The notes: a model not told the origin generated them from the letters alone. A stretch of 64,000 nt of DNA from Candidatus Daviesbacteria bacterium (GCA_016195715.1 JACPZA010000031.1:60336-124335); one strand, 5' to 3'; numbered from the stretch's first letter, positions 1 through 64,000 are shown. Program-made: numbers and translations.

Positions 1-1
1 A

Positions 2-595
2 GTAGGCTGGCAATTATCCAGTACACCTGCCAGTGGTGTACCACAAGCTCCTATCGTGACTATTTCGTCAGATAGTTCTTGCAAAAGCGTTTCTCTTAAT
101 TGGAATGATGTTGCTAATGAAACAGGCTATATAGTGAATAGGAAAAAAACGGCTGATTCTACTTATTTAACTGTTTCTGGAACACTCCCAGCCAACACCA
201 CGACCTATACTGATAACCTAGATATTTCAGCCACTAGCTATGATTATTTAGTTAAATCCCTAAATGATTTTGGCAAATCTGATCGATCTAATATAGTCAC
301 AGCTCCAGTTACTCCAACAACCCCATCTAATTTAGCTTCTGGCGCAGTTACCAAAACTACCATTGCACTTTCTTGGATCGATAATTCTGATAATGAAACA
401 GGTTTTGTAGTTAACAGAAAAAAAACCACCGATTCTACTTATTTAACTGTTTCTGGAACTTTGCCAGCAAATACTACAACCTATACTGATAAAAACCTAG
501 CAGCAAACACTAGTTATGATTATTTGGTTAAATCAGTTAACTGTAGCGTTAAGTCAGATAGGTCAAATTTAATAACAGTTGTAACATCAAAATAA
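2..595 (+). CDS. C-terminal fragment of a surface protein with two tandem fibronectin type III-like repeats (5' end lies outside the window)
   Basis: The frame is open from the window edge. Two near-identical ~92-aa repeats (SLNWNDV..GYIVNRKKTADSTYLTVSGTLPANTTTYTD..SYDYLVKS) show the typical Fn3 W/Y/L pattern. The DNA repeat has a period of ~276 bp. Confidence 0.5.
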   Translation, partial: VGWQLSSTPASGVPQAPIVTISSDSSCKSVSLNWNDVANETGYIVNRKKTADSTYLTVSGTLPANTTTYTDNLDISATSYDYLVKSLNDFGKSDRSNIVTAPVTPTTPSNLASGAVTKTTIALSWIDNSDNETGFVVNRKKTTDSTYLTVSGTLPANTTTYTDKNLAANTSYDYLVKSVNCSVKSDRSNLITVVTSK

Positions 596-2565
596 TGAAA
601 TTAATTAGGTTGGCTATATTTTTAATAGTTTTTTCAGTATTAGGATTATTTATGGTGTCCCATTTACCTTTAACTAAAACTGTTTTAGCTGCTTCAGTTA
701 CAGTTTCAGGTAAAGCTTATGACTCAGCAACTAATAAAGCTGTGGCAGTTGGATTAAAAGTAGCAACCTGTGGATCAAGTTCTAGAGATCCAGTTATTAA
801 ATCAGATGGGACTTTTAGTTTCAGTTTAAATACCGGAGATTTATTTTGTATTCGAGGACCAGCAGTTTCTGGGTATACTAATGACTGTTGTTATGAGTGG
901 CAAATAGCTGGTATTAATTGTCCCCAAGATACGAAAAATCCTAGCTGTCAAGCTGGAGGAGCTCAAGGAGCTGTATCTCAAGATAGAGGGAGTGATTCTG
1001 GTTATAACATTATTTACACTAGTGTTCCAAGTAATGGTGGGAATGTTTCGGGAAAATTATTTGATAAAGATACCAACCAAGCTTTAGGTGTGGGTTTAAA
1101 AGTGGCAACTTGTGGTGCAAATCCCAGCCGAGATCCAACAGTCAATTCTGATGGAACATTTGAGTTTACTGTTCCCAAAGGTGGTCTGTATTGTGTCAGA
1201 GCACCTGATGTTTCTGGCTATAAAAACACCACTGGTTGTTGTTTTGAATGGCAGGTGGCTGGAATTGACTGTCAAGCAAATAAAACTAATCCCAACTGCC
1301 AGGGTAAAAATCCAGATGGAACTGGGTCAACAACTATGGATCGCTCAACTGATACAGGATATGATTTTGCTTATTCTAAAATAGTTAGCTCCCCAACTCC
1401 AACTACACCGCCCACGTCTACACCCTCAGCGACTGTCGCCCCTACCATAGTAACTAAGATTGAGTTGGCTGAAGATCCTAATTTTACCAACTCGGTGACA
1501 GTTGTCCCCTCGCCTTATAATAGCGATTCGGCTGGCAATGCCATTTCCACTTATAATTTTTTGCCAGATAGCTCAACTGGCTTAGTCTCATCTGGAATAA
1601 AAAATGTTTGGGTTAGATACAGCTCATCAGATGGTCAAACAGAGATTGCAGGGCCTGCATCGATTGAGTTTGTGGCTTCTGATCCAGTAGTTACCGAGCT
1701 TAGCTGTTTGAAGGATTCAAGTAATAATGTAACATTTAATTTTATTGGATCTGATTTTGGCCAAACTCCCGGGACAATTACTGCTGTTGTATCTGATACT
1801 CAAACTCCCTTAGCTTTGCAAGGAGTTTGGACAGAGACTTCAGTATCTGGAAGTCTGCCTAATACTCCAACTGATGTAACCACTTTTCCTGTTAGCTTAA
1901 CTCGCTTTGATGGAAAAACTGTCAGTAGTGTTTGTGATTTAACCGCAGCTCAAATTTCCATTGGTGCTGATTATTTTTGTCCAGCTATTCCAAACCATCA
2001 AGAAGATAATGTGAATATGACTATTTATGACGCAGTTTCTGGAAATAAACTAGATGATGAAACTGTTTCGATTAATCCTTTAGGGATAGTCTCCGGATAT
2101 ACATTTACTTTTATTGAAAACGGTAAATATACTCTTTCACTAAAACCGACCTTTGGTTTGCGCCGCTTTGGTAGTTTTACAGCCAAGACTAATCCAGGAA
2201 ATACCAATATTGTTAATCTTTCGCTGCCTGTTGGGGATATTGCTCCAGATAATGGTGATGGAATTATTAATGATTTTGATGGTCAAGAATTAAAGATTCA
2301 CCAATTTGGTGATGTTCCAACCGATGCTACCCGCTCCGGCGATTTTAATAAAGATAGTGCAGTTAATTCTTTCGATTGGTCTTGTATGAAATCTGATTAT
2401 TTCGAAACTGATGCACCGCTACCAAACTTTCCAGTCTCTGGTTTTGGAGCAACACCCACTCCTACACCGACACCATTTTTTAGCTCTTTCCCCACTAATA
2501 CTCCAACTCCGACTCCAACTTTAGAGCCAAGTAGCGAAGTCAGTCCAACACCAGCTAGTACATAA
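595..2565 (+). CDS. Secreted modular protein: signal peptide, 2x Cys-rich 'CCYEWQ' repeat module, beta-rich middle region, C-terminal dockerin (two Ca-binding segments) and PT-linker tail
   Basis: There is an N-terminal hydrophobic signal. A ~110-aa module is duplicated (VSGKxYD..ATCG..FC(I/V)RAP..CCYEWQ(I/V)AG(I/V)(N/D)C.). Two dockerin segments match the DxNxDGxINxxD consensus (DNGDGIINDFD, DFNKDSAVNSFD). A TPTPTP linker follows. The TAATG start overlaps the previous stop. Confidence 0.6.
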   Translation: MKLIRLAIFLIVFSVLGLFMVSHLPLTKTVLAASVTVSGKAYDSATNKAVAVGLKVATCGSSSRDPVIKSDGTFSFSLNTGDLFCIRGPAVSGYTNDCCYEWQIAGINCPQDTKNPSCQAGGAQGAVSQDRGSDSGYNIIYTSVPSNGGNVSGKLFDKDTNQALGVGLKVATCGANPSRDPTVNSDGTFEFTVPKGGLYCVRAPDVSGYKNTTGCCFEWQVAGIDCQANKTNPNCQGKNPDGTGSTTMDRSTDTGYDFAYSKIVSSPTPTTPPTSTPSATVAPTIVTKIELAEDPNFTNSVTVVPSPYNSDSAGNAISTYNFLPDSSTGLVSSGIKNVWVRYSSSDGQTEIAGPASIEFVASDPVVTELSCLKDSSNNVTFNFIGSDFGQTPGTITAVVSDTQTPLALQGVWTETSVSGSLPNTPTDVTTFPVSLTRFDGKTVSSVCDLTAAQISIGADYFCPAIPNHQEDNVNMTIYDAVSGNKLDDETVSINPLGIVSGYTFTFIENGKYTLSLKPTFGLRRFGSFTAKTNPGNTNIVNLSLPVGDIAPDNGDGIINDFDGQELKIHQFGDVPTDATRSGDFNKDSAVNSFDWSCMKSDYFETDAPLPNFPVSGFGATPTPTPTPFFSSFPTNTPTPTPTLEPSSEVSPTPAST

Positions 2566-2614
2566 AAATATATAATGAACAAGTTCTTGTTGTACAATAA
2601 ATTTAAAGCTTAAA

Positions 2615-3286
2615 ATGGGAACAGAATCTGCCGCACCAATCATCATTCATACTACTCCTTTACCTGAAAATAAGGGTATACTACCTTCTCAGTATCCAAA
2701 ATCTTTTCCCAAAATACTTTTTATAGTTTTAATTTTAATTATCATAGCTGAGTTAATTTGGGGAGCTTGGTATATTTTCAGACCCCTTCAAAAAAGAATA
2801 AACTCAAGTCCACAAAACAGTTTGGTGACCAAATTACCTAAGTCTACTGCTTCCATTAAACTTTCATCTATAAATCCTAGCGTATCAGTTGGAGATAAAC
2901 TGTCTGTGGATATTAATTTAAGTTCAAAAAACACCCCTTCAGATGGAGTGGATATAGTCATTAAATATGATCCTAACTTTCTTAGGGTTGAAGGTAAAAA
3001 TGAGGAAGTTTTTATCAAAGGTAGTGTTTTTCCAGAATACCTAGGTTACAAGGTTGATAATAAACTGGGAGTGTTGCGTATTTCTGGGATTAGTGAGGTT
3101 ACATCAGCTCCGGCAATTGCCCAGGGATTGTTTGGGACGGTTAATTTTAAAGCTGTCAATCAGGGAACAACTCAAGTGGTGGTGGATTTTAAGCCAGGAA
3201 ATACTACTGATTCTAACGTCATTGATAGTAAGTCAAATAAAGATATTCTTGACAAAGTGAGCAACCTTTCAGTTAAGATTAATTAG
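2615..3286 (+). CDS. Membrane-anchored cohesin-like domain protein
   Basis: An N-terminal TM helix (ILFIVLILIIIAELIWGAWYIF) is followed by a beta-sandwich-like domain with cohesin-type strands (DIVIKYDPNFLRVEG...GSVFP...LFGTVNFKAVNQGTTQVVVDF). Confidence 0.4.
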   Translation: MGTESAAPIIIHTTPLPENKGILPSQYPKSFPKILFIVLILIIIAELIWGAWYIFRPLQKRINSSPQNSLVTKLPKSTASIKLSSINPSVSVGDKLSVDINLSSKNTPSDGVDIVIKYDPNFLRVEGKNEEVFIKGSVFPEYLGYKVDNKLGVLRISGISEVTSAPAIAQGLFGTVNFKAVNQGTTQVVVDFKPGNTTDSNVIDSKSNKDILDKVSNLSVKIN

Positions 3287-4057
3287 ATGATTAAAAAAAT
3301 TATCGGACTTTTGGCTTTAATTGTTTTTTTAGTTACTCCATCAAGCGCACTTGCAGTTGGAGCAACTTTGTCACTTAATCCTTCCAGTTCAACTGTCAAT
3401 AAAGGTTGCAGTTTTTCTGTTGGGATTGACTTAGATACTGGAGGTAATAATACCGATGGGACTGATGTAATTTTAAAATTTGACCCAACTATTTTAACAG
3501 CTGGAGCAATTACTCAAGGTTCAGTTTATCCTGATTATCCTGGCAAATCAACAGATAACTCAGCCGGGACAGTCACTATTTCTGGACTAGCGTCAGTAAC
3601 CACCCCATTTAATGGTAGTGGCAGATTTGCTGATGTCAGTTTTACAGTTAACCCCAACGCTTCTCAATCAGTTGCTCAGATAAATTTTGATTTTGATCCC
3701 TCTAATAAAACAAATTCCCGGGATTCAAATGTGGTTCAATCAGTTAACGTGGTGGATATTTTAAATTCAGTTACTAATGGTAGTTATACAATTGCTAGTG
3801 GTGCTTGTTCAACTACAGCTACCTCTACACCTACCCCTACTCCAGTTCCTGGTGGTGGCGGAGTAATTGGTGCTTCTACCCCAACCCCTACTCCATTTGG
3901 TTTTATAAATGGAGTTCCAAAAGGTGGATTAATTGCTAGTGGCTCAGGTAATAACAACACTTTGCCTCCAGCTGGAGTTTCTGGACCAACCTTAGCGCTG
4001 TCTATTGTTGGTGTGTTTTTAGTAATTGGTGGAATACTGGGTTTAGCTTTACTTTAA
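3287..4057 (+). CDS. Cohesin-like domain protein with PT/Gly linker and C-terminal LPPAG + TM anchor
   Basis: A signal peptide precedes a cohesin-like core (VILKFDPTILTAG..GSVYPDYPG..GRFADVSFTVNPNAS). Then come a TPTPTPVPGGGG linker and a C-terminal 'LPPAG' followed by a ~25-aa hydrophobic segment ending the protein. The start is adjacent to the upstream stop (TAGATG). Confidence 0.45.
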   Translation: MIKKIIGLLALIVFLVTPSSALAVGATLSLNPSSSTVNKGCSFSVGIDLDTGGNNTDGTDVILKFDPTILTAGAITQGSVYPDYPGKSTDNSAGTVTISGLASVTTPFNGSGRFADVSFTVNPNASQSVAQINFDFDPSNKTNSRDSNVVQSVNVVDILNSVTNGSYTIASGACSTTATSTPTPTPVPGGGGVIGASTPTPTPFGFINGVPKGGLIASGSGNNNTLPPAGVSGPTLALSIVGVFLVIGGILGLALL

Positions 4058-4088: not shown

Positions 4089-5012
4089 ATGAATTTATCT
4101 ACTCTGATAGCTGATTTTTTGGAATATTTAGAGTTGGAAAGAAATGTTTCCCAAAAAACAATTAAAAATTATTCTCATTATTTAAAAAGATTTTTAGATT
4201 TTGCTGGAGATATTAAAGTCTCAAATATTGATTTAAATTTAATTAGAAAATATCGGCTATTTTTAGCCAGGTTTATAGATGAACAAACCAAAAAGCCCTT
4301 AAAACGGGTTACTCAAAATTTCTTTTTAATTGCATTAAGAGCTTTCTTGAGGTATTTATCACGAATTGATGTTAAATCCCTTTCTGCTGAAAAAGTGGAG
4401 CTTGGTGAACAAGACCCCTCCCCGCTTCGTATTTTGAATGAAGATGATTTAGCCAGATTACTTCAAGCACCTGGACAAAGTTCTAAAGAAGGGATTAGAG
4501 ATAAAACTATTTTGGAGCTGCTTTTTTCAACTGGGCTTAGAGTTTCAGAACTGGCATCGCTAAATAGAGATCAAATTAATTTACAAAGACGTGAGTTTGG
4601 AGTAGTAGGAAAAGGTGGTAAAGAACGGGTAGTTTTTTTATCAGATTCTGCCGTGGAGTGGTTAGAAAGATTTTTAATGATGAGAAAAGATAGTTTTAAA
4701 CCTTTATTTATTCGTTATCAAGGTCGAGTTGAAACTTTAGATCAGGGAGAAAAAATGAGACTCACTCCTCGCTCAATTGAACGAATTGTAGAAAAATATG
4801 TTAAATTAGTTGGTCTTGCTATTAAAGCTACACCGCATACTCTAAGGCATTCATTTGCAACCGATTTATTAATAAATGGAGCGGATATTAGATCAGTTCA
4901 AGAGATGTTAGGTCATTCCAATATTTCTACCACTCAAATTTATACTCATGTAACAAACCGCCAACTCAAAGAAGTCCATAAAGCTTTTCATAGCAAAAAC
5001 CGCTCAGAGTAA
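4089..5012 (+). CDS. Tyrosine recombinase, XerC/XerD family
   Basis: The C-terminal catalytic motifs HTLRHSFATDLL...GHS..STTQIYTHV (R-H-R-Y tyrosine) are present, with a phage-integrase N-terminal SAM-like domain. Confidence 0.85.
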   Translation: MNLSTLIADFLEYLELERNVSQKTIKNYSHYLKRFLDFAGDIKVSNIDLNLIRKYRLFLARFIDEQTKKPLKRVTQNFFLIALRAFLRYLSRIDVKSLSAEKVELGEQDPSPLRILNEDDLARLLQAPGQSSKEGIRDKTILELLFSTGLRVSELASLNRDQINLQRREFGVVGKGGKERVVFLSDSAVEWLERFLMMRKDSFKPLFIRYQGRVETLDQGEKMRLTPRSIERIVEKYVKLVGLAIKATPHTLRHSFATDLLINGADIRSVQEMLGHSNISTTQIYTHVTNRQLKEVHKAFHSKNRSE

Positions 5013-6374: not shown

Positions 6375-9017
6375 GTGAGTATTGTGAAAATAATGAAGAA
6401 ATTATCTCAGTCGGGGTTTGCTGGAATTTTAGGGCTTTTTAGCTTACTGATTGTGATTATGGGTATTTTAGCTGGGGTTTACTTAGTTAAAAATTATTCA
6501 ACTAATCCAAAGACCCAAGCGACAGGTGAAACTATTAAATTTGTTGATGACCAAGGAAATACTATTAACTCAACCACCTCAAATATAGTTAAAGTTTCGC
6601 TAACTGCTCCAGTTTGGTCAGCTACGTCTAGCAGTTTTTTGAAATTAATTCCTAATTTGTCTTTAATCAAAGATGCCCAAGCTGCAACTTTATATACAGT
6701 TTCAGGAAAACTCTATGATCAAAAAACTAATCAAGGAATTGGAGCAGGATTAACAATTGAAACTTGTGCTGATCCAAGTTTTAGAAGTAACCCCAAAGTA
6801 AGTTCTGATGGGACTTTTAGTTTCCAAGTTAGGGATAAAGAAACTTATTGTGTCAGGGCTCCACAAGTTTCAGGTTACAGTCTTAGTGGAACTTGTTGTT
6901 ATGAGTGGCAAATTGCCAATATTAATTGCCAGACAAGCTCAGATCCAGTTTGTGGAGGTTCATCAGATGAATCATCAGGTGCTAAAGAGCAAGATAGGTC
7001 AACTGACTCTGGTTTTAATTTTGCTTATCAAGCAAGTGGCAATAGCGGAGGGGGCGGAAGTGGTGATTCTGGCAAAGTAAAAGTTTCTGGAAAGGCTTAC
7101 GACAAAGCTACCAATAAACCAGTTGGAGTTGGACTAACTGTGGCAACTTGTGGTGGTGCAAAAAGGGATCCAGTTATTCAATCTGATGGCAGCTTTCAAT
7201 TTAAAGTTGATCAAGGCGGACTATTTTGTGTCAGAGCACCTGATGTTTCAAGATACACTAACAACTGCTGTTATGAGTGGCAAATTGCTGGGGTAGATTG
7301 TGCAGCTCATCCTAAAAGTGCTGATTGTCAGCAAGGTGATGCTAAGACCATGGACCAAAGTACAGATAGCAACTACAATATAATATACACCTCAAAAACC
7401 AAACCTACCCCAACACCTAATCCCCAAACAAAATCAGTAGTTTTAGCTGAAGATCCAAACTTTACTATTAATTCTAAAACTCTAGATTTTACAACCAGTC
7501 CAATAAGTTATACTTTTTCTGATTCAACTCCAGGTTTAAAAGTTTTATATGCTAAATTTATTGCAATTGATGGTAGAGTTCAAAACGCTTCACCCTTCCC
7601 TGCTCAAATTCAATTGATCAATGCGTCTAGCAAACCTAATATTATAGTTGTTATGACAGATGATCAAACTCTACAATCAATGGCTTATCTTCCAAAAGTT
7701 AACTCATTAATTCGTGATCAGGGTAGCGAATTTACCAATTTCTTTGTTTCTAGCTCACTTTGTTGTCCATCCCGCTCGGAATTTTTAACCGGTCAATATG
7801 CCCACAATAATGGAGTTATCTCAAATCAACCTCCAAACGGTGGTTATGACAAGCTAGATAATACCAATACTTTAGCAGTCTGGTTAAAAAATTCAGGTTA
7901 TTATACCGGACTAGTTGGCAAATATTTAAATGGTTTTGGTAATGCTAAAAATGCTGATCCCAAAGCTCTCCCACCTGGCTGGAGCGATTTTCATGGCGGT
8001 TGGGGTCAATCATTTTATAGTAGTTATTTTAACTATACTTTGGATGAAAATGGTAAATTAGTTGATTATAAAGATGATGGTGTAACTGATAATAGCTACA
8101 TGACTAATGTCTTAACCCAAAGGGCGGTTGATTTTATAAATGGCCGTAAAAATGATTCTAATCCTTTCTTTCTTTGGTTAACTTATTTTACCCCTCACGA
8201 AGATGCCTCAGTTGATGGGCCAACTCCAGCTAGAAAATACCAGGGTAAGTTTGCTAGTGAGCCTCTTCCAAAGCCTGCTAGCTTTAACGAAGCAGATGTT
8301 TCTGACAAACCCCAGATGGTCCAAGATTTTGCGCTGCTTAATTCATCAGACATCTCTCATATCACCAATCACTACCGTCATACCCTGGAAGCTTTGCAAT
8401 CTGTAGATGATGGAGTTGAAACACTAATTAATACCCTCCAAACTGCTGGTAAACTTGAGAATACAATTATTATGTTCACCTCAGACAATGGTTACTTTAA
8501 TGGAGAGCACAGAAAGCCCAAGGGTAAATCAATGCTTTATGAAAACTCGATTCATTTACCACTTTTAGTTTCTGGTCCAGGAATTCCTCATCAAAGCATT
8601 GATCGAGCAGTTGTAAACATTGATTTTGCACCAACCATTGTAGATTTTAGCGGCGCAACTGCTAAAAGAACTATGGATGGAATGTCTTTTAGAGGTTTAA
8701 TTGCCAGCCCGGCTATTTCATGGAGGGATAGTTTCTTATTAGATGGTCCAGAGAATGAATATACCGCTGTTAGAACAAAGCAATATATCTATGCCGAGCA
8801 TACCTCAGGAGGTAAGAATCCAAATGAGTTATATGATTTATTTAGTGACCCAGACGAGCTGACTAATTTAATGTATACTAACTCCAAAAGCCTAAACCAA
8901 GGATTGGTAACTATGCTCCATCAACTCAAAACTTGCAATGGTTCAAACTGTAATGTTCCCTTAGCCTCTGGATTGTTGCCTTGGACTAGTTCAACCAGTT
9001 CTGCAGGATTGAAATAA
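6375..9017 (+). CDS. Secreted/anchored fusion: N-terminal TM or pilin-like leader, 2x Cys-rich 'CCYEWQ' modules (paralogous to ORF 595) and a C-terminal sulfatase catalytic domain
   Basis: Sulfatase signature: IIVVMTDDQ...SSSLCCPSRSEFLTGQY (C-x-P-x-R formylglycine motif), with ...FTSDNGY..GEHR..KGK downstream. The upstream modules align with 595..2565 (VSGKAYDKATNKPVGVGLTVATCG..CCYEWQIAGVDC). Confidence 0.75.
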   Translation: MSIVKIMKKLSQSGFAGILGLFSLLIVIMGILAGVYLVKNYSTNPKTQATGETIKFVDDQGNTINSTTSNIVKVSLTAPVWSATSSSFLKLIPNLSLIKDAQAATLYTVSGKLYDQKTNQGIGAGLTIETCADPSFRSNPKVSSDGTFSFQVRDKETYCVRAPQVSGYSLSGTCCYEWQIANINCQTSSDPVCGGSSDESSGAKEQDRSTDSGFNFAYQASGNSGGGGSGDSGKVKVSGKAYDKATNKPVGVGLTVATCGGAKRDPVIQSDGSFQFKVDQGGLFCVRAPDVSRYTNNCCYEWQIAGVDCAAHPKSADCQQGDAKTMDQSTDSNYNIIYTSKTKPTPTPNPQTKSVVLAEDPNFTINSKTLDFTTSPISYTFSDSTPGLKVLYAKFIAIDGRVQNASPFPAQIQLINASSKPNIIVVMTDDQTLQSMAYLPKVNSLIRDQGSEFTNFFVSSSLCCPSRSEFLTGQYAHNNGVISNQPPNGGYDKLDNTNTLAVWLKNSGYYTGLVGKYLNGFGNAKNADPKALPPGWSDFHGGWGQSFYSSYFNYTLDENGKLVDYKDDGVTDNSYMTNVLTQRAVDFINGRKNDSNPFFLWLTYFTPHEDASVDGPTPARKYQGKFASEPLPKPASFNEADVSDKPQMVQDFALLNSSDISHITNHYRHTLEALQSVDDGVETLINTLQTAGKLENTIIMFTSDNGYFNGEHRKPKGKSMLYENSIHLPLLVSGPGIPHQSIDRAVVNIDFAPTIVDFSGATAKRTMDGMSFRGLIASPAISWRDSFLLDGPENEYTAVRTKQYIYAEHTSGGKNPNELYDLFSDPDELTNLMYTNSKSLNQGLVTMLHQLKTCNGSNCNVPLASGLLPWTSSTSSAGLK

Positions 9018-9094: not shown

Positions 9095-11650
9095 ATGTTT
9101 CTGTCCAAATTTAAAAAGCAGCTTGCTGTTTTTTTAAAAAATCAACAAGGTGCAATTCCGCTTTTGGTGCTAGTGGCAGTTTTAGGGCTAGTGGCTTTTT
9201 TGGCTATCTCTTCAACTTTTTCTTTTAGAAATAGTATTTTTTCTAGACTTTTTCCTAAACCCCCCTCTCATGCTGCAAGCAAAAATGGTCCAGTTCAAAG
9301 CATCTATACTCCTGATAATTATGGAGTTAATTATTTTGGTTTTTCAAGTGATGATACCATCCGTGGACAACAACTTGATTTAATCAAGCAAACTGGTGCC
9401 AAATGGGTACGAGGAGTGACCTGTCAATGGCAAAGTATTCAATGGGATCAAAATATGTACAGCAGCAACTTATGGAATTTTGCTGCATGCGATAAAATAG
9501 TCAATGAAATAGTTTCTCGAGGTATGACCCCGCTAATGGCACTCTGGTATTCTTCAAATTCCTGTACCACTGCTCCTTCTAATCCAATTACCCAAATTTC
9601 AGGTTACCCACCCTGTGATAATCAGAAGTTTCATGATTATGTTTATCGAGTGGTCAGCCGTTATGGATCCAATGCCAATGGCATTGTCCCTGATAAAAAT
9701 GACACAGCAGCATATGGACAAAACAAGGTGCATTTTTATGAGCTTGGTAATGAGCCAAACAGACAAAATGCATTTCCGATTGCTGATGGACTTGGTGGGA
9801 CCTATGATGCTACTAATGAGCCAGCCCACCTAGCAGCTAACACTTATGTCTCTCTTTTAAATACTGCCCATGATGCCATCAAAGGATCATCAGGGGCAGA
9901 TGCTGGTTCAAATCTGGTGGTGGCATCAATAAATGCTGGTAATGTTATTGTCCCTAGAACAGATTTCTTAACTGATGTTATAAAGGGCGCTGGGAATAAT
10001 ATTGATATCATGAACCTGCATGTCTATGGTGATCAAAAAAGTTTTGACACCTCGCTATCTCAAGCAAAGCAGGCATATGTAGATGCAGGTATAGCAGAAA
10101 AACCTTATTGGGTGACAGAGAATGGTTATGCTAGTGACTCAACCTTTAAAAGTTTCCCCTTCCCCAGCACTGAACCAGATTTTTATTGCCCAACTGGAAC
10201 TTGTTATCAGCAGCAAGCCAATTATATCAATGAAATGATTCCTTATATGTTCAATTCTGGCGTTTCAAAAGTATTTTGGTTTGCTAGTGTTGATGATCCC
10301 CAAAGCACCAGTCCTGGGTATTGTACTGATAGTTTGATGTATTACCCTGGTTATCAATGTAATCAGAATGGTCCTGCACCATCCTCTGTACCTTTAACCC
10401 AAAAAGATCCTGGGTTTACTGCCTACAAAAATTTAGTTGCCAAGCCAGACCCATTACCTCCAATTACCAGCATGGTTTCTCCAGTAGATGGATCTAGTAT
10501 TTCTGGTGCACTTACTATTTCAGCCACAGCTACAGATAATGTTGGGGTAACTAAAGTGGAGTTTTATGTTGACGGAGGAGATAATAAGGGAGGAACTGGA
10601 CCCTATAAAACTATGACTGCCCCAACCTCAGGCAGCACCTATTCTAATGACCAAAATACATTTACTTTAGTTCAGGGTTCAACCCATACTCTTTATGTTA
10701 AAGCTTATGATGCTGCCGGAAATTTTGCCCAATCTAATACTATCTCCTTTAAAGTAACTGACACTACTGCTCCAGCTGTATCTATTACCTATCCTGCCAG
10801 TTCTACCCCTCCTCTTTCTGGAGGAACAACCATTACAGCTACAGCTACAGATAATATTGCTATAGCTCATGTAGATTTTTATATTGATGGGGCACTTTTA
10901 AGCTCTGATAAAAATCCAGATAGTGGGACAAATAATTATTCAGCATTCTGGGGTTCTGGTACTTTACCTCAAGGTTCAATCCACACCATTTATGCAATAG
11001 CTTATGACACTGCTGCTACCCCAAACCAAACTACCTCCCAAACAATTACAGTCACTACTAATGATTCCTCTAAACCAGTAGTTAGCAATATAGTTCCAAC
11101 CAATTTAGCAACCATCAATTCTGGAATTATAGCTGTTTCTGCTACTGCCACAGATAATGTTGGGGTAACTAAAGTTGAGTTCTGGCAAGACTCAGATTCT
11201 GCACCTTTTGCTACAGATACATCTGCCCCCTACTCTGCTAGTTGGGATGCGACTAATTTAAGTCAAGGAGTTCAACACACTCTAACAGTTAAAGCTTACG
11301 ATGCCCAGGGAAACATTGGTAGTGGAACTTCCAAAGTAACTTTTATTGATACTACAAAGCCAGTAATTTCTAACTTACTACCAGTTAATGGTACTGTTGT
11401 TACTCTGAATGTGACTGTTAATCTTCAAGCTACAGCTACAGATAATGTCAAAATAAAAAATGTGACCTTCTCGGTGGATGGAACTCAGAAATGCTCTGTC
11501 GGATATTCCTCCGCTGTCAATGATGTTTACACCTGCTCTAATTGGAAACCAACTCTAAAATCCCATACTTATAATATTTCAGTGACAGCTAATGACACAG
11601 CCTCCTCAACCAATAGCACAACTAGTACGTATACTTTAAAAACATTATAA
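9095..11650 (+). CDS. Glycoside hydrolase, clan GH-A (GH5-like) catalytic domain + 4 bacterial Ig-like repeats + conserved C-terminal domain
   Basis: The catalytic acid/base motif YELGNEPN and the nucleophile motif WVTENGY are present. Repeats of the type ATATDNVGVTKVEFYVDG (Big-like) follow. There is an N-terminal TM or pilin-like leader. Confidence 0.65.
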   Translation: MFLSKFKKQLAVFLKNQQGAIPLLVLVAVLGLVAFLAISSTFSFRNSIFSRLFPKPPSHAASKNGPVQSIYTPDNYGVNYFGFSSDDTIRGQQLDLIKQTGAKWVRGVTCQWQSIQWDQNMYSSNLWNFAACDKIVNEIVSRGMTPLMALWYSSNSCTTAPSNPITQISGYPPCDNQKFHDYVYRVVSRYGSNANGIVPDKNDTAAYGQNKVHFYELGNEPNRQNAFPIADGLGGTYDATNEPAHLAANTYVSLLNTAHDAIKGSSGADAGSNLVVASINAGNVIVPRTDFLTDVIKGAGNNIDIMNLHVYGDQKSFDTSLSQAKQAYVDAGIAEKPYWVTENGYASDSTFKSFPFPSTEPDFYCPTGTCYQQQANYINEMIPYMFNSGVSKVFWFASVDDPQSTSPGYCTDSLMYYPGYQCNQNGPAPSSVPLTQKDPGFTAYKNLVAKPDPLPPITSMVSPVDGSSISGALTISATATDNVGVTKVEFYVDGGDNKGGTGPYKTMTAPTSGSTYSNDQNTFTLVQGSTHTLYVKAYDAAGNFAQSNTISFKVTDTTAPAVSITYPASSTPPLSGGTTITATATDNIAIAHVDFYIDGALLSSDKNPDSGTNNYSAFWGSGTLPQGSIHTIYAIAYDTAATPNQTTSQTITVTTNDSSKPVVSNIVPTNLATINSGIIAVSATATDNVGVTKVEFWQDSDSAPFATDTSAPYSASWDATNLSQGVQHTLTVKAYDAQGNIGSGTSKVTFIDTTKPVISNLLPVNGTVVTLNVTVNLQATATDNVKIKNVTFSVDGTQKCSVGYSSAVNDVYTCSNWKPTLKSHTYNISVTANDTASSTNSTTSTYTLKTL

Positions 11651-11664: not shown

Positions 11665-13836
11665 ATGCTTAAATTATTAGACCAAAAAGGTGCTATTCCA
11701 CTACTAATACTGATTGCTGGGGTTGGGTTAATTGTTTTTTTAATTATTTCTGCAACTTTTTCCTTCAGGAATCAAACCTTCCAAACTCTTTTTCCCAAAC
11801 CCTCCTCTAAAGCTGCAACACTCTATGGGCCAGATAACTATGGTGTTAATACTGGTATAGCTTTATCTGAAGCAGCTATGCCAGATGTCATGGCAAAAGA
11901 GCATGCTGCAAATATCGGTTGGATTAGATTACTTTGCAATTGGGATAGTATCCAAGCTTCTGATCCAGGACCTGTGCCAAACCCTCCCACTGGTTTAAGT
12001 AATTTTAAATTTAACTCATGCGATGCAAATATGACCAATGTTAAAAATAATTCTTTGCAACCTTTACTTGGATTTTATTATGCTTCAGCATGGTGCAATA
12101 CTGGTGGAGTTGGTTTATCTCAACAAGAAAAGTCTGCTCCTTGTGATTACAATAAATTCTATGACTTTGTTTATCATTTAGTGGCCAGGTATGGATATAC
12201 TGAACACTCTGATTTAAGCCTAACCAAAGCTAATGGTTATGCCCAAGGGATAGTTAAATATTGGGAGATTGGTAATGAACCAGATGCAGACTCTCAACTT
12301 GCTCCAGGTGGAACTGCAATTGAAATTTCTAATAATTATGCTCATATTTTACAAACTGCCCATGATGCTATTAAAGCAGCAGATCCTAATGCTAAGATTT
12401 TAATTGGGGGTTTGGTCATTCAGAGTAAGGCAGACCCAACTTTTTTCCAGGATCTGTTAAACAATACTACCTATCCCAATACCAAAAATAACTTTGATAT
12501 TGGAAACTTTCATACTTATGGAATTAAAACAGAAGCCCAATCTAAGATGAATGAAGTTAGAAATGATTTAGCAGCAGTTGGAGTAACTAAAGATACTTGG
12601 GTAACAGAGAATGGTTATCCTTCTAATCTTGCTCAACAAAATCTCCTATCTGATGCCAGGCTAGAAGCTAATTATGGAACAGATGTGCAAGGTCAAGTTA
12701 ATTATATGAATGATTTAAGGCCTTATATTTTAAAAGACTTGGGAGCTAAAAAAGTCTTTTGGTATACCAGTTTAGATGACCCTTCAGACAGTACTTCTTT
12801 TTGCAGCCATGGTTTATTTTATTACAATGGTTACCAGTGCAACCAAGCAGTTTTGCCATCTCCTGCTCCTGTAGAAACTGCTAAACCTGCTTTTGATACT
12901 TATAAAAATATTATTGCTGGAACTGATACCACTCTTCCAACTGTTTCAATGAGTCCTCTTCCTCAATATGTAACTGGCAATGTAACTTTAACAGCCAATG
13001 CTTCAGATAATATTTGGGTTTATAAAGTGGAGATTTATGTTGATGGCATAATGCAAACTGATAATAGTGGCAATCCAGATTTTTATGCACCATTTACAGA
13101 TTCTTGGCCTACAGGAACTTTAGTTCAAGGAAGCAGTCATTCTATTTATGCCAAAGCTTATGATGAAAATTTTAATATGACCCAATCTGCTCCTATCACC
13201 ACAGTTATCCAAGACACTAGTAACCCCACTATTTCTATTAACTCGCCAGTTGGAGGAAGTACTGTGACTGGAATAGTTCCTATAAGTACAACATCTTCTG
13301 ATAATGTTGGAGTAACTAAGGTAGAATTTTATTTGGATAGTTCCACCACCCCTTTTGCAACTAATTCTAACCCTTCCCCTGCTCCTTCACCTACCACTTT
13401 TAATACCACTGCTAATTGGAATTCAACCACCTTACCTCCAGACCAGCAAGGTATTTACCACACAATAGCTGTTAAAGCTTATGATGCTTATGGAAATATA
13501 AGTTTACAGCCCTCAGTCAGGGTGAAATTAGCTGATACCACTAAACCTACTTTGAGCAATTTGCTGCCTATAAATGGGACAATTATTACTGTTGGTATTT
13601 ATGCAACTTTGCAGGCTACAGCTACAGATAATGTAAGAATACTTAATGTGACCTTTTCAATTGATGGAACGCAACAGTGCTCAAAGGGTTACAGTACTGC
13701 AATCAATGATGTTTACAGTTGTACAAACTGGAAGCCAACTTTACACAACCATACCTATACTATTTCAGTTACAGCTAATGACACAGCTTCACCAGCCAAC
13801 AGCACTACTCAAACTTTTACCCTAAAAACTTTATAA
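11665..13836 (+). CDS. Glycoside hydrolase, clan GH-A (GH5-like), tandem paralog of 9095..11650
   Basis: WEIGNEPD and WVTENGY motifs are present, with Big-like repeats. The C-terminal ~100 aa are nearly identical to the upstream paralog (..LQATATDNV(K/R)I.NVTFS(V/I)DGTQ.CS.GYS.A(V/I)NDVY.C.NWKPTL..HTY.ISVTANDTAS..NSTT.T(Y/F)TLKTL). Confidence 0.65.
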   Translation: MLKLLDQKGAIPLLILIAGVGLIVFLIISATFSFRNQTFQTLFPKPSSKAATLYGPDNYGVNTGIALSEAAMPDVMAKEHAANIGWIRLLCNWDSIQASDPGPVPNPPTGLSNFKFNSCDANMTNVKNNSLQPLLGFYYASAWCNTGGVGLSQQEKSAPCDYNKFYDFVYHLVARYGYTEHSDLSLTKANGYAQGIVKYWEIGNEPDADSQLAPGGTAIEISNNYAHILQTAHDAIKAADPNAKILIGGLVIQSKADPTFFQDLLNNTTYPNTKNNFDIGNFHTYGIKTEAQSKMNEVRNDLAAVGVTKDTWVTENGYPSNLAQQNLLSDARLEANYGTDVQGQVNYMNDLRPYILKDLGAKKVFWYTSLDDPSDSTSFCSHGLFYYNGYQCNQAVLPSPAPVETAKPAFDTYKNIIAGTDTTLPTVSMSPLPQYVTGNVTLTANASDNIWVYKVEIYVDGIMQTDNSGNPDFYAPFTDSWPTGTLVQGSSHSIYAKAYDENFNMTQSAPITTVIQDTSNPTISINSPVGGSTVTGIVPISTTSSDNVGVTKVEFYLDSSTTPFATNSNPSPAPSPTTFNTTANWNSTTLPPDQQGIYHTIAVKAYDAYGNISLQPSVRVKLADTTKPTLSNLLPINGTIITVGIYATLQATATDNVRILNVTFSIDGTQQCSKGYSTAINDVYSCTNWKPTLHNHTYTISVTANDTASPANSTTQTFTLKTL

Positions 13837-16717: not shown

Positions 16718-17368
16718 TTATCCATTTATAACAATACCTCTTTGTGCAAAGAATTTTTTAAAATCTGAGAAAAAAATTTCAGTATTTGGTTTGGTAAATT
16801 TTGTATCACCAGATGGGTTGTGAATATAAAAAACTTTTTTATTAAAATCAAATCCAGTGATTAAAACTAAATGACCACCACTGCCTATTTTGGTTGGGTT
16901 ACTTTGAGGATTTCGGATTTGAGAACTAACTGATGCAATTACATAATTTTTGTTAACTAAGTTTTCAATGATTTCTTCTAAAACCATTGGTGAGATAATT
17001 TTTCCTTCTAAATTAAATTCTTTATAAATAAAATTTAAAAATGGTTTGTAAAATAAACCATCTAAGCCATCTGGACTGCTTTTATTTTCAATAAAACCCC
17101 CATACTCAATGCATTTTTCACCAAGTTTAAAAATGGGAATGTTTTTATTTAATTTATGAACTAGAATCATTTTCAAACAAGCCATCCCACAACCATTCTT
17201 GCTCCAAAGTTCTTTTTCTTTTTGAGTTTTTGCTCCAGTATCACCTTGTTTAAAGTAAGGGATATTAATTAAGTTGGAATTTATAGAAGGATTATAGAAA
17301 AAATACCTAAACTTTTTGCTAAATAAAATTAAATGCCAAAGTAGCTTTCTGAAGTTATGTATTTCCAT
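16718..17368 (-). CDS. Papain-like cysteine peptidase domain protein (peptidase C39-like)
   Basis: A Cys motif (NGCGMACLKMIL) and a downstream His motif (GGHLVLITGFD) fit the C39_2 fold pattern. The assignment is not certain. Confidence 0.4.
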   Translation of the reverse strand: MEIHNFRKLLWHLILFSKKFRYFFYNPSINSNLINIPYFKQGDTGAKTQKEKELWSKNGCGMACLKMILVHKLNKNIPIFKLGEKCIEYGGFIENKSSPDGLDGLFYKPFLNFIYKEFNLEGKIISPMVLEEIIENLVNKNYVIASVSSQIRNPQSNPTKIGSGGHLVLITGFDFNKKVFYIHNPSGDTKFTKPNTEIFFSDFKKFFAQRGIVING

Positions 17369-25795: not shown

Positions 25796-27499
25796 ATGGC
25801 GCTAGCTGCTCAAACGATTGAAGAAATTTTGCTTAAACAAGGTTATTTACGTCCTGATCAAGTCTCAGCTATTAAGCTTGAAAGTATTAATTCTGGTCAA
25901 CCTTCGGAAAAAATTATCAGAGAACACAACTTTGCCACGGCAGAACAAGTGGCTCAAGCCCTCTCAATATTACTTGGGGTGCCATTTATCAAGTTAGAAA
26001 ATAAAGCCATTTCCACAGAAGTTTTAAATTTAATTCCTGAAGCTGTGGCAAAGCATTACCAACTAATCCCCTTTGATCGTCAGCTGGATAGGTTATCAGT
26101 AGCTATGGTTGATCCACTGGATTTACAAGTCATTCAATTTATTGAGAAAAAATCCGGACTTAAAGTTATTCCTTTTTTAGGCTATACCGAAGATATTTTA
26201 AAAGCTATCTCCAGCCAGTATTCTCAAAACCTAACCTCTGAAGTCACCTCAGCTCTAAAAGAAGTTTCTGAACTGCAGCGAGCAAATGCCCCTCAAGAGT
26301 CGATTGATCAAGCAGAAGTAATCCGCGAAGCACCAGTTTCCAATATTGTTACCCAACTTTTGGAGTATGCAGTTAAGACCCGAGCTTCAGATATTCATAT
26401 TGAACCTCAAGAAAATCAAACTAGAGTTAGATATAGAATTGATGGAATTTTGCACGAAAAAGTTATTTTACCTAAAAAAGTTCACGAAGCAGTTGTTTCT
26501 CGAGTTAAAATTTTATCAAATTTAAAAATTGATGAACGAAGGTTACCGCAAGATGGTAGGTTTACTTTTGAGTTTGCTGGAGCAGAGATTGATTTGCGTA
26601 TCTCCACTCTGCCGACAGTTTTTGGAGAAAAAGTAGTATTAAGATTGCTGCCAAAATCTGCTCAAGCACCCTCACTGACTGATTTAGGACTGCGTGGCAG
26701 TTCTCTAAAAACCCTAGAAACTCAACTCCTTCGTACCCATGGAATTATTTTAATCTGTGGCCCAACAGGTTCAGGTAAAACCACCACTTTATATTCAGTT
26801 TTATCGAAACTTTCAACAACAAAAGTAAATATTTTAACAATTGAAGATCCGGTTGAGTATGAAATTCCTGGAGCAAATCAAGTTCAAGTTAATCCCCAAA
26901 TTGGCTTAACCTTTGCCTCAGCTCTGCGGTCTTTTTTGCGCCAAGACCCAAATATTATCCTGGTTGGAGAGATTCGAGATACTGAAACTGCAGAGTTGGC
27001 TATTCAAGCTGCACTAACTGGTCACCAAGTTTTTTCTACACTACATACTAATACTGCATCAGGCGCTCTGCCTAGAATGCTAGACATGGGAACTGAGCCA
27101 TTTTTACTAGCTTCAGCTGTGAACGGAATAGCTGGGCAGAGAATTTTGCGAAAAATTTGTGAGCATTGTCGGGTTTCATTTACTCCTCCACCTGAGGTGA
27201 TTGAAAATATTAAAGTTACCTTAGGAAATCTAATCTCAACTAACAAACCAATCCAGCTTTACAAAGGTCAGGGTTGTAATTTTTGTAATCACTCTGGTTA
27301 TTTAGGACGGACAGGAATTTATGAAGTTTTATCAGTTTCAGAAAAAATTATGAAATTAATTTTAGAGCGAGCTTCATCCGTTGCTATTGAAGAACAAGCC
27401 GTATCTGAAGGGATGATTACTTTAAAACAAGATGGCTATTTAAAAGTTTTAGAAGGGGTGACCACTTTTGAGGAAGTTTTGCGTGTAGCCCAAGATTAA
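25796..27499 (+). CDS. pilB: Type IV pilus assembly ATPase PilB (GspE family)
   Basis: There is an N-terminal GSPII_E N-domain. Walker A LICGPTGSGKTTTLYS, the Asp/His boxes and a tetracysteine motif (CEHC..CNFC) are present. Confidence 0.9.
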   Translation: MALAAQTIEEILLKQGYLRPDQVSAIKLESINSGQPSEKIIREHNFATAEQVAQALSILLGVPFIKLENKAISTEVLNLIPEAVAKHYQLIPFDRQLDRLSVAMVDPLDLQVIQFIEKKSGLKVIPFLGYTEDILKAISSQYSQNLTSEVTSALKEVSELQRANAPQESIDQAEVIREAPVSNIVTQLLEYAVKTRASDIHIEPQENQTRVRYRIDGILHEKVILPKKVHEAVVSRVKILSNLKIDERRLPQDGRFTFEFAGAEIDLRISTLPTVFGEKVVLRLLPKSAQAPSLTDLGLRGSSLKTLETQLLRTHGIILICGPTGSGKTTTLYSVLSKLSTTKVNILTIEDPVEYEIPGANQVQVNPQIGLTFASALRSFLRQDPNIILVGEIRDTETAELAIQAALTGHQVFSTLHTNTASGALPRMLDMGTEPFLLASAVNGIAGQRILRKICEHCRVSFTPPPEVIENIKVTLGNLISTNKPIQLYKGQGCNFCNHSGYLGRTGIYEVLSVSEKIMKLILERASSVAIEEQAVSEGMITLKQDGYLKVLEGVTTFEEVLRVAQD

Positions 27500-27502
27500 T
27501 TT

Positions 27503-28576
27503 ATGAATATTCAACAACTACTTGACTTAACAATTGGCTCAAATGCTTCTGATTTACACCTTTTGGTGGGCTCTCCACCAACTTTAAGAATTGATGGAAA
27601 TTTAGCACCAATTAACGGTATGAATGTAATTTCTCAATCTGATTTTGAGAGTTTGGTTTTTGCGCTAATTTCTCCTTACCAAAAAGATCTTTTTTTGAGA
27701 GAATGGGAACTTGATTTAGGTTTTGATTTTGCTGGTAAAGCCAGGTTTAGGGTCAATATTTATAAACAAAGAGGAGCACTAGCCGCATCGCTTCGACTTA
27801 TACCCAAAACTATTCGATCTATTGAAGAGACCGGTTTACCGCCAATAGTTTCTAAATTAACCGAGCTTGAACAAGGTTTAGTTTTGGTGACTGGCCCAAC
27901 AGGTCATGGCAAATCCACAACTTTAGCTGCCTTAATTAATCAAATTAACAAAACCCGCTCAGTCCATATCTTAACTATTGAAGATCCAATTGAGTTTGTT
28001 TATCCAGAAGGTAAAGCTCTGATCTCTCAACGAGAACTAAACTCTGATACTAAAGCTTGGAATAACGCCCTAAAGTCTGCTTTAAGAGAAGATCCAGATG
28101 TAGTGTTAATTGGTGAGATGAGAGACTATGAAACAATTGCTTCAGCCATGACTATTGCTGAAACTGGACATTTAGTATTGGCAACGCTGCACACTAACTC
28201 TGCCTCTCAAAGTATTGATCGTATTATTGACGTTTTTCCTGAAAATCAACAACCTCAAATTCGCTCTCAGCTGGCTGAGGTGATTGAAGCAATTATCTCC
28301 CAGCGTTTAATCCCCACGATTAATCCTGGACGAGTTTTAGCAGCTGAGTTACTTTTTGCAGTCCCAGCTCTGCGAGCTATTATTCGGGAGGGAAAAAATC
28401 ACCTAATTGATAATTTAATTCAAACCTCAGCTGAAGCTGGAATGATTGGTTTGGAAACGTCTCTCGCGACATTAGTTCGGGAGGGATTAATTACTTCGGA
28501 GGTAGCTTTAAATTATGCTCTTAAACCGCAATTACTTAACAAATTTTTAGGTACTGATACTACTTCTTCAGCTTAA
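27503..28576 (+). CDS. pilT: Twitching motility ATPase PilT
   Basis: Walker A VLVTGPTGHGKSTTLAALI is present. Length is 357 aa, with the AIRNLIRE-like motif AIIREGK. Confidence 0.9.
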   Translation: MNIQQLLDLTIGSNASDLHLLVGSPPTLRIDGNLAPINGMNVISQSDFESLVFALISPYQKDLFLREWELDLGFDFAGKARFRVNIYKQRGALAASLRLIPKTIRSIEETGLPPIVSKLTELEQGLVLVTGPTGHGKSTTLAALINQINKTRSVHILTIEDPIEFVYPEGKALISQRELNSDTKAWNNALKSALREDPDVVLIGEMRDYETIASAMTIAETGHLVLATLHTNSASQSIDRIIDVFPENQQPQIRSQLAEVIEAIISQRLIPTINPGRVLAAELLFAVPALRAIIREGKNHLIDNLIQTSAEAGMIGLETSLATLVREGLITSEVALNYALKPQLLNKFLGTDTTSSA

Positions 28577-28579
28577 AAT

Positions 28580-29788: not shown

Positions 29789-29879
29789 AGTATAAGTTTA
29801 ACCACTTGACTGAGTGTTAACCATTGTGTCTAAAATAAGGTTAGAGATAAAACTCTAAATTTTAAGGAGGTGAGATAGT

Positions 29880-30452: not shown

Positions 30453-30458
30453 TTTGGG

Positions 30459-31367: not shown

Positions 31368-31461
31368 AATTTAGTAGCTAAATTGGGGTATTGACAGCTT
31401 AAAAAAAAGATGTAAGAGTAGATATATAAGAGAAAAATAAATTTAAGAAATTTTTCAGAAA

Positions 31462-33642: not shown

Positions 33643-33643
33643 T

Positions 33644-63259: not shown

Positions 63260-64000
63260 ATGCCCAAAAATAAAAATACTCGGCTAACTTTGTTAGTGGT
63301 AGCTTTAGGACTTATAATATTTGTTTTAACTTCCTTTTTTTTCCAATTTAAAAAACCACCTTTTAGTTTCTTATATCCCAAACCTCCATCTAAAGCTGCT
63401 AGCGGTGATATATCTGAGAACTCTTTTAGTTTAGTTTCTTCAAATAATGCTCCGAATATTGGTGATCAAATAGCAGTTTCAATATATGCTAGATCTGATA
63501 CTACTCCGGCTAATTTGTTTATCTCCAAAATCAATTTTTCTGCTGACAAATTACAAGTCACTCATTTAGACGTAAGTGCGGGTTTTCCAGTTTTGTGGCC
63601 AGATAGATTTTATGACAATCAGACTGGAGTAATTTCTATCATCGGTGCAGTCCCAACTCCTGGAATCCAGACTACTAGTACAGATTTACTTCTTGCAGTT
63701 TTAACTATTAATGTAGTGGCTTCTGGTGATGCTAGTATAACTTTTGATCCAAGTTCGGCAATTTTAAATAATATTGATAGTAGTAATATTTTAACTATCA
63801 AAAGAGATTTAACGTTAACAGTCCCCTCTCCAGTGGTAACAACTTCTGATAGTGGTGGTTCATCTGGCGGAGGTGGAGGCGGTGGGGGCGGCGGCGGAGG
63901 AGGTGGGGGTGGAGGTTCTTCCGGTGGCAGTGGGGGTGGAGGCGGTGCGCCAGCCGCTCCTAGAAGAGGTATTGATTTGAATGGTGATGGCCGAGTTAAT
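63260..64000 (+). CDS. Partial CDS (3' end lies outside the window): TM anchor, 'LYPKPPSKAAS' motif, cohesin-like domain, poly-Gly linker, start of a dockerin (DLNGDGRVN)
   Basis: An ATG at 63260 with the frame open to the window end. The cohesin-like core is ..IAVSIYARSD..LQVTHLDVSAG..ASITFDPSSAIL.. A Gly run of more than 30 residues follows, then GIDLNGDGRVN, which matches the first dockerin Ca-binding segment. Confidence 0.5.
   Translation, partial: MPKNKNTRLTLLVVALGLIIFVLTSFFFQFKKPPFSFLYPKPPSKAASGDISENSFSLVSSNNAPNIGDQIAVSIYARSDTTPANLFISKINFSADKLQVTHLDVSAGFPVLWPDRFYDNQTGVISIIGAVPTPGIQTTSTDLLLAVLTINVVASGDASITFDPSSAILNNIDSSNILTIKRDLTLTVPSPVVTTSDSGGSSGGGGGGGGGGGGGGGGGSSGGSGGGGGAPAAPRRGIDLNGDGRVN

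Follow-up and report, generated by a model that had tools for sequence, protein, structure and literature searches.

We analyzed a stretch of 64,000 nucleotides (nt) from the metagenome-assembled genome (MAG) of a Candidatus Daviesbacteria bacterium (GCA_016195715.1, JACPZA010000031.1:60336-124335), hereafter called the window. It comes from the Microgenomates, within the Candidate Phyla Radiation (CPR), and is AT-rich, with a GC content ranging from 0.29 to 0.40. Close to its start lie three consecutive genes, which we call P1, P2, and P3. They encode a protein bearing a dockerin and two membrane-anchored proteins with one cohesin each (Table 1). An earlier note on this DNA had described them as a cohesin-dockerin assembly module of the cell surface, similar to a cellulosome, and translation of the open reading frames (ORFs) gave exactly the coordinates it listed. 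Our analysis indicates that the modules are genuine, and we think it probable, without being confident, that they form a non-cellulosomal surface-tethering cassette kept in a conserved Daviesbacteria gene order. Most bacteria of the CPR have never been cultured; their cells are tiny, and a life attached to other cells is assumed for them. To our knowledge, little has been established about how they retain surface proteins and recognize their partners. The cassette was not described in the literature that we found on Daviesbacteria, Microgenomates, Patescibacteria, or CPR together with cohesins and dockerins, which consisted of generic surveys of carbohydrate-active enzymes (CAZymes).

The three genes are tightly packed. 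The stop codon of P2 directly abuts the start codon of P3, and these codons also abut or overlap in the orthologous loci. We found no plus-strand terminator-like site within 595-4057, and the promoter and terminator scans gave results at chance level. Given the abutting or overlapping codons and the lack of an internal plus-strand terminator, P1, P2, and P3 are very probably co-transcribed on one messenger. The start codon of P1 is itself overlapped by the stop codon of an upstream ORF encoding fn3 repeats (TAATG). Hence, the operon would extend 5' of P1 and may begin before the window.

Table 1. Features of the cassette and of its surroundings, in positions of the window and residues of the proteins (aa, amino acids; TM, transmembrane).
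Feature	Position (nt)	Strand	Residues	Remarks
P1	595..2565	+	656 aa	NCBI HY025_05495, 'hypothetical protein', 100% identity; secreted or N-terminally anchored, dockerin-bearing
P1 cargo, two Cys-rich beta-sandwich repeats	694..1380	+	aa 34-143 and 149-262	weakly CarboxypepD_reg-like (Pfam E=0.013)
P1 conserved stalk	1441..1938	+	aa 283-360 and 365-448	Ig-like, then IPT/TIG-like
P1 X-module-like beta-sandwich and dockerin	1948..2400	+	aa ~452-543, then ~544-602	Pfam match at aa 553-599 = nt 2251-2391
P1 Pro/Thr-rich low-complexity C-terminal tail	2401..2565	+		read from translation; also in several orthologues
P2	2615..3286	+	223 aa	type-II membrane protein, one cohesin
P2 TM helix	2714-2779	+	aa 34-55	intramembrane Glu
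P2 cohesin	2852-3283	+	aa ~80-223	
P3	3287..4057	+	256 aa	NCBI HY025_05505, 100% identity; cohesin and C-terminal TM helix
P3 signal peptide			aa 1-23	ends in ...SALA
P3 cohesin	3356-3811	+	aa 24-175	
P3 Pro/Thr/Gly linker			~50 residues	between cohesin and LPPAG
P3 LPPAG	3962-3976	+	aa 226-230	
P3 C-terminal TM helix	3989-4054	+	aa 235-256	reaches the last residue
ORF with two fn3 repeats	1-595	+		runs off the window start
XerC/D-like tyrosine recombinase	4089..5012	+		Pfam Phage_integrase 1.2e-44; first gene 3' of the cassette
Sulfatase	6375-9017			Pfam E=2e-48
Big_7 protein	9095-11650			
GH53/GH5-like (clan GH-A) protein	11665-13836			weak Pfam matches
Truncated cohesin-family gene (63260 protein)	63260..64000	+		runs off the window end
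63260 protein, TM helix		+	aa 9-27	
63260 protein, cohesin-family domain		+	aa ~54-190	
63260 protein, Gly/Ser linker	63845-63946		aa 196-229	34 residues
63260 protein, dockerin-loop start GIDLNGDGRVN	63968-64000			at the window edge

To place these genes in a wider context, we scanned an alignment of the P3 family against one genome per species and obtained 80 loci, without exception in MAGs of Daviesbacteria, Microgenomates, or Patescibacteria. Roughly half of the MAG records concerned (L009-L088, binchicken TPA assemblies) bear the unreliable title 'uncultured Gammaproteobacteria bacterium', though in gene content and synteny they match Daviesbacteria/Microgenomates. All ORFs of the loci were searched with jackhmmer using the P1 C-terminus, P2, and P3, and the genes were then tallied explicitly. 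The adjacent order P1-P2-P3 was present in 67 of about 76 informative loci. The pattern is that of a dockerin-module protein, a cohesin protein of about 200-280 aa with an N-terminal TM helix, and a cohesin protein of about 230-270 aa with a C-terminal helix. Several loci have a tandem pair of dockerin-module genes. The other loci comprise one where the dockerin gene lies 1.6 kb away, six with the cohesin pair alone, and two with a lone P3. Runs of N are found upstream in five of the six loci with the pair alone, and most exceptions have assembly gaps on their upstream side. The occurrence of the triad is thus far beyond chance, and such a conserved and tight adjacency argues that the three proteins would act jointly at the cell surface. 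In relatives, further large surface proteins are encoded 5' of P1; in L003 and L018, for instance, these have thrombospondin type-1 repeats.

The downstream neighbors are constant too: a gene for a XerC/D-like recombinase and then one for a Phage_holin_4_2-family membrane protein lie 3' of the cassette, with gyrA nearby. Hence, the cassette has a conserved chromosomal context. The recombinase gene is equally placed in L002, L003, L005, L006, and L008, and L005 has a second one 5' of its P1 gene. We considered invertible, shufflon-type variation driven by this adjacent recombinase and rejected it, since P1 has no meaningful inverted repeats on either side in the window. The recombinase is probably a housekeeping protein and a candidate bystander of the system.

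P1 combines an N-terminal cargo with a stalk, an X-module-like domain, a dockerin, and a tail. The stalk is predicted by AlphaFold2 (AF2) to be made of beta-sandwiches (pLDDT 87.5), and its family profile matches domain D of the CGTases. The dockerin includes DNGDGIINDFD and DFNKDSAVNSFD (aa 553-599), and in the AF2 model both loops are followed by helices (residues 278-288 and 310-317 of a 328-aa construct). Its second Ca2+ loop (D-F-N-K-D-S-A-V-N-S-F-D) is canonical, and the D/N/D/N/D positions are invariant across the family. As P1 alone scores below the Pfam threshold, the dockerin was assessed at the level of the family. An exhaustive HMMER search with the C-terminal 328 aa (aa 283-610) yielded 347 clusters at 50% identity, 308 of them at E<=1e-10, in proteins of 296-1559 aa where the match is consistently near the C-terminus. 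Dockerin_1 was identified at E<=0.01 in all 26 aligned members (best 5.3e-10) and TIG in 11 of them, while 30 of 55 family representatives match Dockerin_1 at E<=1e-4. Among the dockerins of the PDB, the profile of the 26 members matches DocCel5 of Acetivibrio cellulolyticus (3.2e-6) and CelS of Clostridium thermocellum (1.5e-5). The same profile matches the X-module+dockerin chains 5k39_B (1.6e-5) and 2b59_B (1.9e-4), with alignments running through the preceding beta-sandwich. Hence, judging from these alignments, the C-terminal part of P1 is a dyad of an Ig-like X-module and a dockerin.

A hidden Markov model (HMM) of the dockerin alone identified 79 of the 79 P1-family proteins of the triad loci, plus just one other ORF in around 1.4 Mb of loci DNA, and the module is C-terminal in every one of the 79. 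The ORF 595..2565 had been said to end in a two-segment dockerin; the dockerin is real, as the family-level HMM reveals, but around 55 aa of Pro/Thr-rich tail come after it. The two dockerin helices are asymmetric in sequence (xSELxRQW vs DWACMRxDF), which suggests, by analogy with non-cellulosomal dockerins (PMC5429695), a single binding mode. No catalytic domain was identified in P1 by Pfam. In place of a classical short signal peptide, many of its orthologues (L003, L012, L013, L015) begin with a long N-terminal stretch and a TM helix, and share the motif 'QQQIIxSRA(A/Q)'.

P2 matches Pfam Cohesin (PF00963) with 26.6 bits, above the gathering cutoff of 24.1. Its N-terminal helix would leave the cohesin just outside the membrane. 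P3 itself has no match to Pfam Cohesin. However, its domain is 37% identical to that of P2 across its whole length (E=8e-20), and among the matches listed nearly all of 120 P3 homologues carry PF00963. The AF2 model of P3, made from an alignment of 40 sequences, has a core (aa 26-173) mostly at pLDDT >90. When this model was compared with the PDB by Foldseek, the best 50 matches were all cohesins, with CohA2 of Clostridium acetobutylicum at the top (6kgf_C, E=4.5e-11). With type I cohesins its TM-score, taken on the target, is 0.79-0.83, compared with around 0.57 for those of types II and III. The homology to P2, the homologues with PF00963, and the structural matches place P3 in the cohesin family, with a modeled fold that is type-I-like. 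Some P3 orthologues are already annotated 'cohesin domain-containing protein' in NCBI. Overall, we regard the identity of the cohesin and dockerin modules as close to certain. The search for cohesins that the earlier note had proposed as a check was hence positive for both proteins, directly for P2 and through P2, the homologues, and structural similarity for P3. Its picture of two adjacent membrane-anchored cohesin-like proteins with Pro/Thr and Gly linkers is right about both cohesins, both anchors, and the linker of P3, but P2 has no real linker. A Glu lies inside the TM helix of P2 in 60 of 67 orthologues (e.g., AELIWG, GEVVWG). Together with the Gly/Thr-rich helix of P3 and the translational coupling of the two genes, it leads us to speculate that P2 and P3 might associate as a heterodimer within the membrane.

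The C-terminus of P3 had been described as an LPPAG motif with a TM anchor. Both are present: the family consensus is LPPAGxExLTFTLAIVGxxLTxLGILGLALL, with an LPxxG-type motif 4-5 residues before the hydrophobic helix and an almost invariant LTxLGILGLALL. One might thus have expected P3 to be a sortase substrate, cleaved at LPPAG so that its cohesin sits covalently on peptidoglycan while P2 serves as a separate membrane receptor. ScaE of Ruminococcus flavefaciens is anchored by sortase, and LPPAG is the commonest form of the P3 motif (42 of 120 homologues listed), with LPxTG variants occurring as well. Yet, LPxx[GAS] is absent from 22 of these 120 homologues, and none of them has basic residues after the helix, the proteins ending in ...GLALL or similar. 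The NCBIfam LPXTG-anchor models do not match P3 even at E<=1. The C-terminal signal is unique to the P3 family among the 3175 ORFs of the loci (45 of 45 occurrences), and the unusual conservation of the helix suggests retention rather than cleavage. Finally, no sortase was identified by Pfam among the scanned ORFs of the window, nor any homologue of SrtA in the window and 88 loci, using an approximate query sequence. We therefore rejected sortase anchoring, which we consider quite improbable. The missing basic tail, the lack of an LPXTG-model match, the conserved helix, and the lack of a sortase in the scanned DNA point instead to a retained C-terminal TM anchor. In other words, the motif and the helix are there, but they do not behave as a sortase signal.

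The genes of the cassette diverge at very different rates. Among 42 complete triads, the median pairwise identity is 72% for XerC, 53% for the P3 cohesin, 44% for the dockerin, 32% for the P2 cohesin, and 29% for the P1 stalk. P1 and P2 thus diverge far faster than P3 or XerC, and both evolve independently of XerC, the divergence of P1 not being correlated with that of XerC (r ~0). Within the otherwise hypervariable P1, conservation is highest in the dockerin, whose D, N, D, N, D, and C positions are invariant. In a mirror-tree analysis, the partial correlation with P2 was 0.39 for the dockerin and 0.55 for the stalk, and that with P3 was 0.25 and 0.35, respectively. P1 and P2 diverge as a unit, which fits either co-evolution or joint replacement. 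A tentative reading, which we consider rather unlikely, is that P1 and P2 are a lineage-wide plug-and-socket specificity module of episymbiotic CPR bacteria, exchanged or co-evolving together and independently of the species tree. P3 would then be a generic second anchor, and proteins joining an X-module+dockerin to a cohesin, or resembling the 63260 protein, would in some relatives extend the system to a small hierarchical network. If so, the cargo of P1 would be a candidate for what determines the attachment of Daviesbacteria to a host or substrate.

These observations lead us to the following model of tethering. P1 would be exported by its N-terminal signal or anchor sequence, with a fast-evolving cargo followed by a rigid conserved stalk (Ig-like, TIG) and the C-terminal X-module and dockerin. 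P2 and P3 would be co-expressed, each exposing a single type-I-like cohesin at the outside of the membrane: that of P2 would be held near the membrane by the N-terminal helix, and that of P3 raised on a flexible linker of around 50 residues above its C-terminal helix. The dockerin of P1 would bind one or both of them in a Ca2+-dependent way, so that P1 stays at the cell surface and its variable cargo faces outward for adhesion or for binding glycans or a host. What we infer from the sequences is the binding, the choice of partner, the need for Ca2+, and a role of the cargo in adhesion.

Several points weigh against this model. The dockerin of P1 itself has a Pfam Dockerin_1 score of 18.2 bits (E=0.0029; 18.2-19.3 across scans) against a cutoff of 22.9, so that the Dockerin_1 search suggested in the earlier note was sub-threshold for the protein and positive only for its family. 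The first Ca2+ loop is non-canonical (P-D-N-G-D-G..., lacking the Asp of position 1), though GDGxINxxD is kept, and it is degenerate in several orthologues. The partial correlation between dockerin and P2 falls to 0.05 when the stalk is controlled for, i.e., there is no interface-specific signal of co-evolution, and gene linkage alone could explain the co-divergence of P1 and P2. We thus discarded the mirror-tree as evidence for a specific dockerin interface, as its signal is lost on stalk control and gene adjacency is a confounder. The N-terminal helix of P1 may be uncleaved, leaving P1 membrane-bound and the dockerin tether redundant. More generally, many non-cellulosomal cohesin and dockerin modules were never shown to bind each other.

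Hence, the domains might have the folds of cohesins and dockerins without binding each other. P2 and P3 would then be envelope, S-layer, or glycan-binding proteins, the 'dockerin' of P1 would be a structural pair of Ca2+-binding EF-hands, and the genes would adjoin because all of them encode envelope proteins. Modules of this kind are described as widespread and mostly uncharacterized outside cellulosomes (Peer et al. 2009, as reported in PMC13487519). The atypical first loop and the lack of dockerin-specific covariation fit such a reading, as do conserved loops of the P3 family (TDGTD, FDFDPxxKxxTTDSNVV) that are not known features of cohesins. It accounts poorly for the near-universal adjacency and translational coupling of the genes in a lineage where genes otherwise diverge freely. 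It also accounts poorly for a dockerin that is the best-conserved part of P1, with invariant ligand positions, and that in all cases lies at the C-terminal end behind an X-module, the way anchoring dockerins do. We consider this explanation unlikely, and retain the tethering model.

The cassette could also have been a small true cellulosome, where scaffoldin-like cohesins gather the neighboring enzymes for polysaccharide degradation. Of the enzymes reported to be encoded nearby, the sulfatase was confirmed and a clan GH-A gene (GH, glycoside hydrolase) was identified by weak matches, both 2-9 kb downstream of the cassette, and the cohesin and dockerin modules are genuine. P1 and the sulfatase even have their N-terminal 360 aa in common, with 42% identity over 362 aa (E=2e-71; window 595-1680 vs 6375-7620). 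This region comprises two Cys-rich CarboxypepD_reg-like repeats (CCxEWQ motifs) and an Ig-like 'AEDPNF' domain. Such a similarity is best read as domain shuffling, one N-terminal module having been joined to the dockerin stalk in P1 and to an enzyme in the sulfatase. Its presence on both proteins suggests that they have a ligand in common. Some relatives also combine cohesins and the X-module+dockerin in one protein (P0125), and a few P1-family members have a beta-helix/pectate-lyase-like or alpha-1,3-glucanase-like cargo.

To assess this possibility, we used a working definition of the cellulosome that asks for a scaffoldin with at least two cohesins and at least one dockerin-fused GH (PMC13487519). 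The window has neither. P2, P3, and the 63260 protein have a single cohesin each, no protein of the window has more than one, and hence there is no scaffoldin. The enzymes do not carry dockerins: none was identified on the sulfatase, Big_7, or GH proteins by Pfam (E<=0.1), by regular expression, or by the family dockerin HMM. P1 lacks a catalytic domain. Across 55 family representatives, its N-terminal cargo cannot be aligned between members and is mostly without Pfam annotation. Occasional matches are to Laminin_G_3 (5 of 55), beta-helix/pectate-lyase-like domains (4), cohesin (4), SdrD_B, PKD, and similar, and only around 6 of the 55 have an enzyme-like cargo. The cargo of the family thus seems mostly unannotated or lectin/adhesin-like and non-catalytic, and the repeats of P1 are probably a binding module rather than an enzyme. 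We conclude that the proposed cellulosome-like assembly is only partly supported, and not in the enzymatic sense, and regard a true cellulosome as very improbable. In some relatives, dockerin-module proteins themselves have 1-3 cohesins (P0125, L003:5545-7320, L020, L045, L046, L060, L065, L068, and L083); P0125 matches Cohesin in three stretches (E=1.6e-18) and has a TIG domain and a dockerin. Such an architecture is scaffoldin- or adaptor-like, and hierarchical assemblies could be built on it in those species.

There is established precedent, in R. flavefaciens (ScaE) as well as in C. thermocellum, for cell-surface proteins with one cohesin to which dockerin proteins are recruited (PMC5429695). 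The X-module+dockerin dyad of P1 resembles the type II system of C. thermocellum, where the X-module and dockerin of CipA pair with anchoring cohesins of the SdbA, OlpB, and ScaC type (5g5d, 3kcp, 2b59). However, the cohesins found here are nearest to type I (TM-score ~0.8 vs ~0.57), the anchors are TM helices instead of S-layer homology (SLH) domains, and the first Ca2+ loop is atypical. In contrast to C. thermocellum, nothing would be scaffolded, as P1 has neither cohesins nor a carbohydrate-binding module (CBM). The layout of P3, with one cohesin, a flexible linker, and an LPxxG-type motif before a hydrophobic segment, is that of ScaE (PMC5429695). Cohesins of the ScaE type bind dockerins of non-enzymatic proteins (groups 2 and 4) directly at the cell surface (PMC5429695), as we suppose for P1. 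They differ from P3 in that the latter has no basic tail and no sortase was found in the scanned DNA. In addition, two different anchors (P2 and P3) are encoded here in the same operon as a single dedicated partner, and the organism is a CPR bacterium without an evident cellulosome.

The cassette also has features of non-cellulosomal modules, which, in the account of Peer et al. 2009 given by PMC13487519, are single modules on mainly non-catalytic proteins of non-cellulolytic organisms. A cohesin of Archaeoglobus fulgidus (2xdh) and cohesins of toxin complexes of Clostridium perfringens (2jh2, 2vo8) are among the Foldseek matches of P3. What differs is that the partners lie side by side in a cassette kept throughout a candidate phylum-level lineage, that both cohesins are integral to the membrane, and that the cargo is hypervariable. 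The minimal cellulosome-like system of Cellulosilyticum lentocellum (PMC13487519) also has single-cohesin proteins and no multi-cohesin scaffoldin; there, however, the dockerin belongs to a GH5 cellulase that is functional, and a CBM is found next to the cohesin in its protein, whereas neither is the case here. We thus see the cassette as a lineage-specific variant of cohesin-dockerin anchoring at the cell surface, distinctive by its TM-helix anchoring, its two anchors for one dedicated partner, its hypervariable non-catalytic cargo, and its conservation in a CPR lineage.

The cassette is easily recognized and was present in essentially every Daviesbacteria genome sampled. This makes it a tractable candidate for surface display, since its three soluble domains can be expressed for tests of Ca2+-dependent binding. 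With it, the range of cohesin-dockerin anchoring comes to include cohesins held by TM helices, in a lineage that has no cellulosomes. The cassette also calls for caution in metagenomic CAZyme surveys, as a cohesin, a dockerin, and a nearby GH do not make a cellulosome. If the binding is confirmed, the orthologous pairs would provide a new set of small orthogonal cohesin-dockerin parts.

The protein truncated by the end of the window, at 63260, had been likened to a scaffoldin with a cohesin-like domain, a Gly linker of more than 30 residues, and the start of a dockerin. Its domain is similar to P2 (phmmer E=1.8e-7 in the database of 3175 ORFs) and to a P3 profile built without the fragment (7.4e-9). 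Pfam and hhalign alone were unconvincing, and the evidence for a cohesin is transitive only. A metagenomic homologue with 40% identity (L089:3887-5068, 393 aa) has a similar N-terminal architecture and ends in a Dockerin_1 match of 34 bits, above the gathering threshold. The description as cohesin, linker, and dockerin is hence probably right. With its one cohesin, the protein would resemble an adaptor more closely than a scaffoldin. Exact-protein look-ups at both ends of the window yielded short Logan contigs at most, so that this protein and the one encoded 5' of P1 are known here as fragments.

The window also has a complete type IV pilus cluster (25796-42023, plus strand), with a PilB-like ATPase with MshEN, a PilT-like ATPase, PilC, a prepilin peptidase, at least nine N-methyl pilin-like genes, PilX_N, PilM, PilN, and PilO. 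It includes three ORFs without a Pfam match (36731-39575), one of them of 609 aa. On the minus strand, two overlapping small ORFs of 89 and 96 aa (58093-58649) resemble a RelE/YafQ-type toxin-antitoxin pair upon inspection of the sequence. A Peptidase_C39-like gene (16718-17368, minus strand) lies between gyrA and a block encoding D-Ala-D-Ala ligase, Mur ligase, and alanine racemase.

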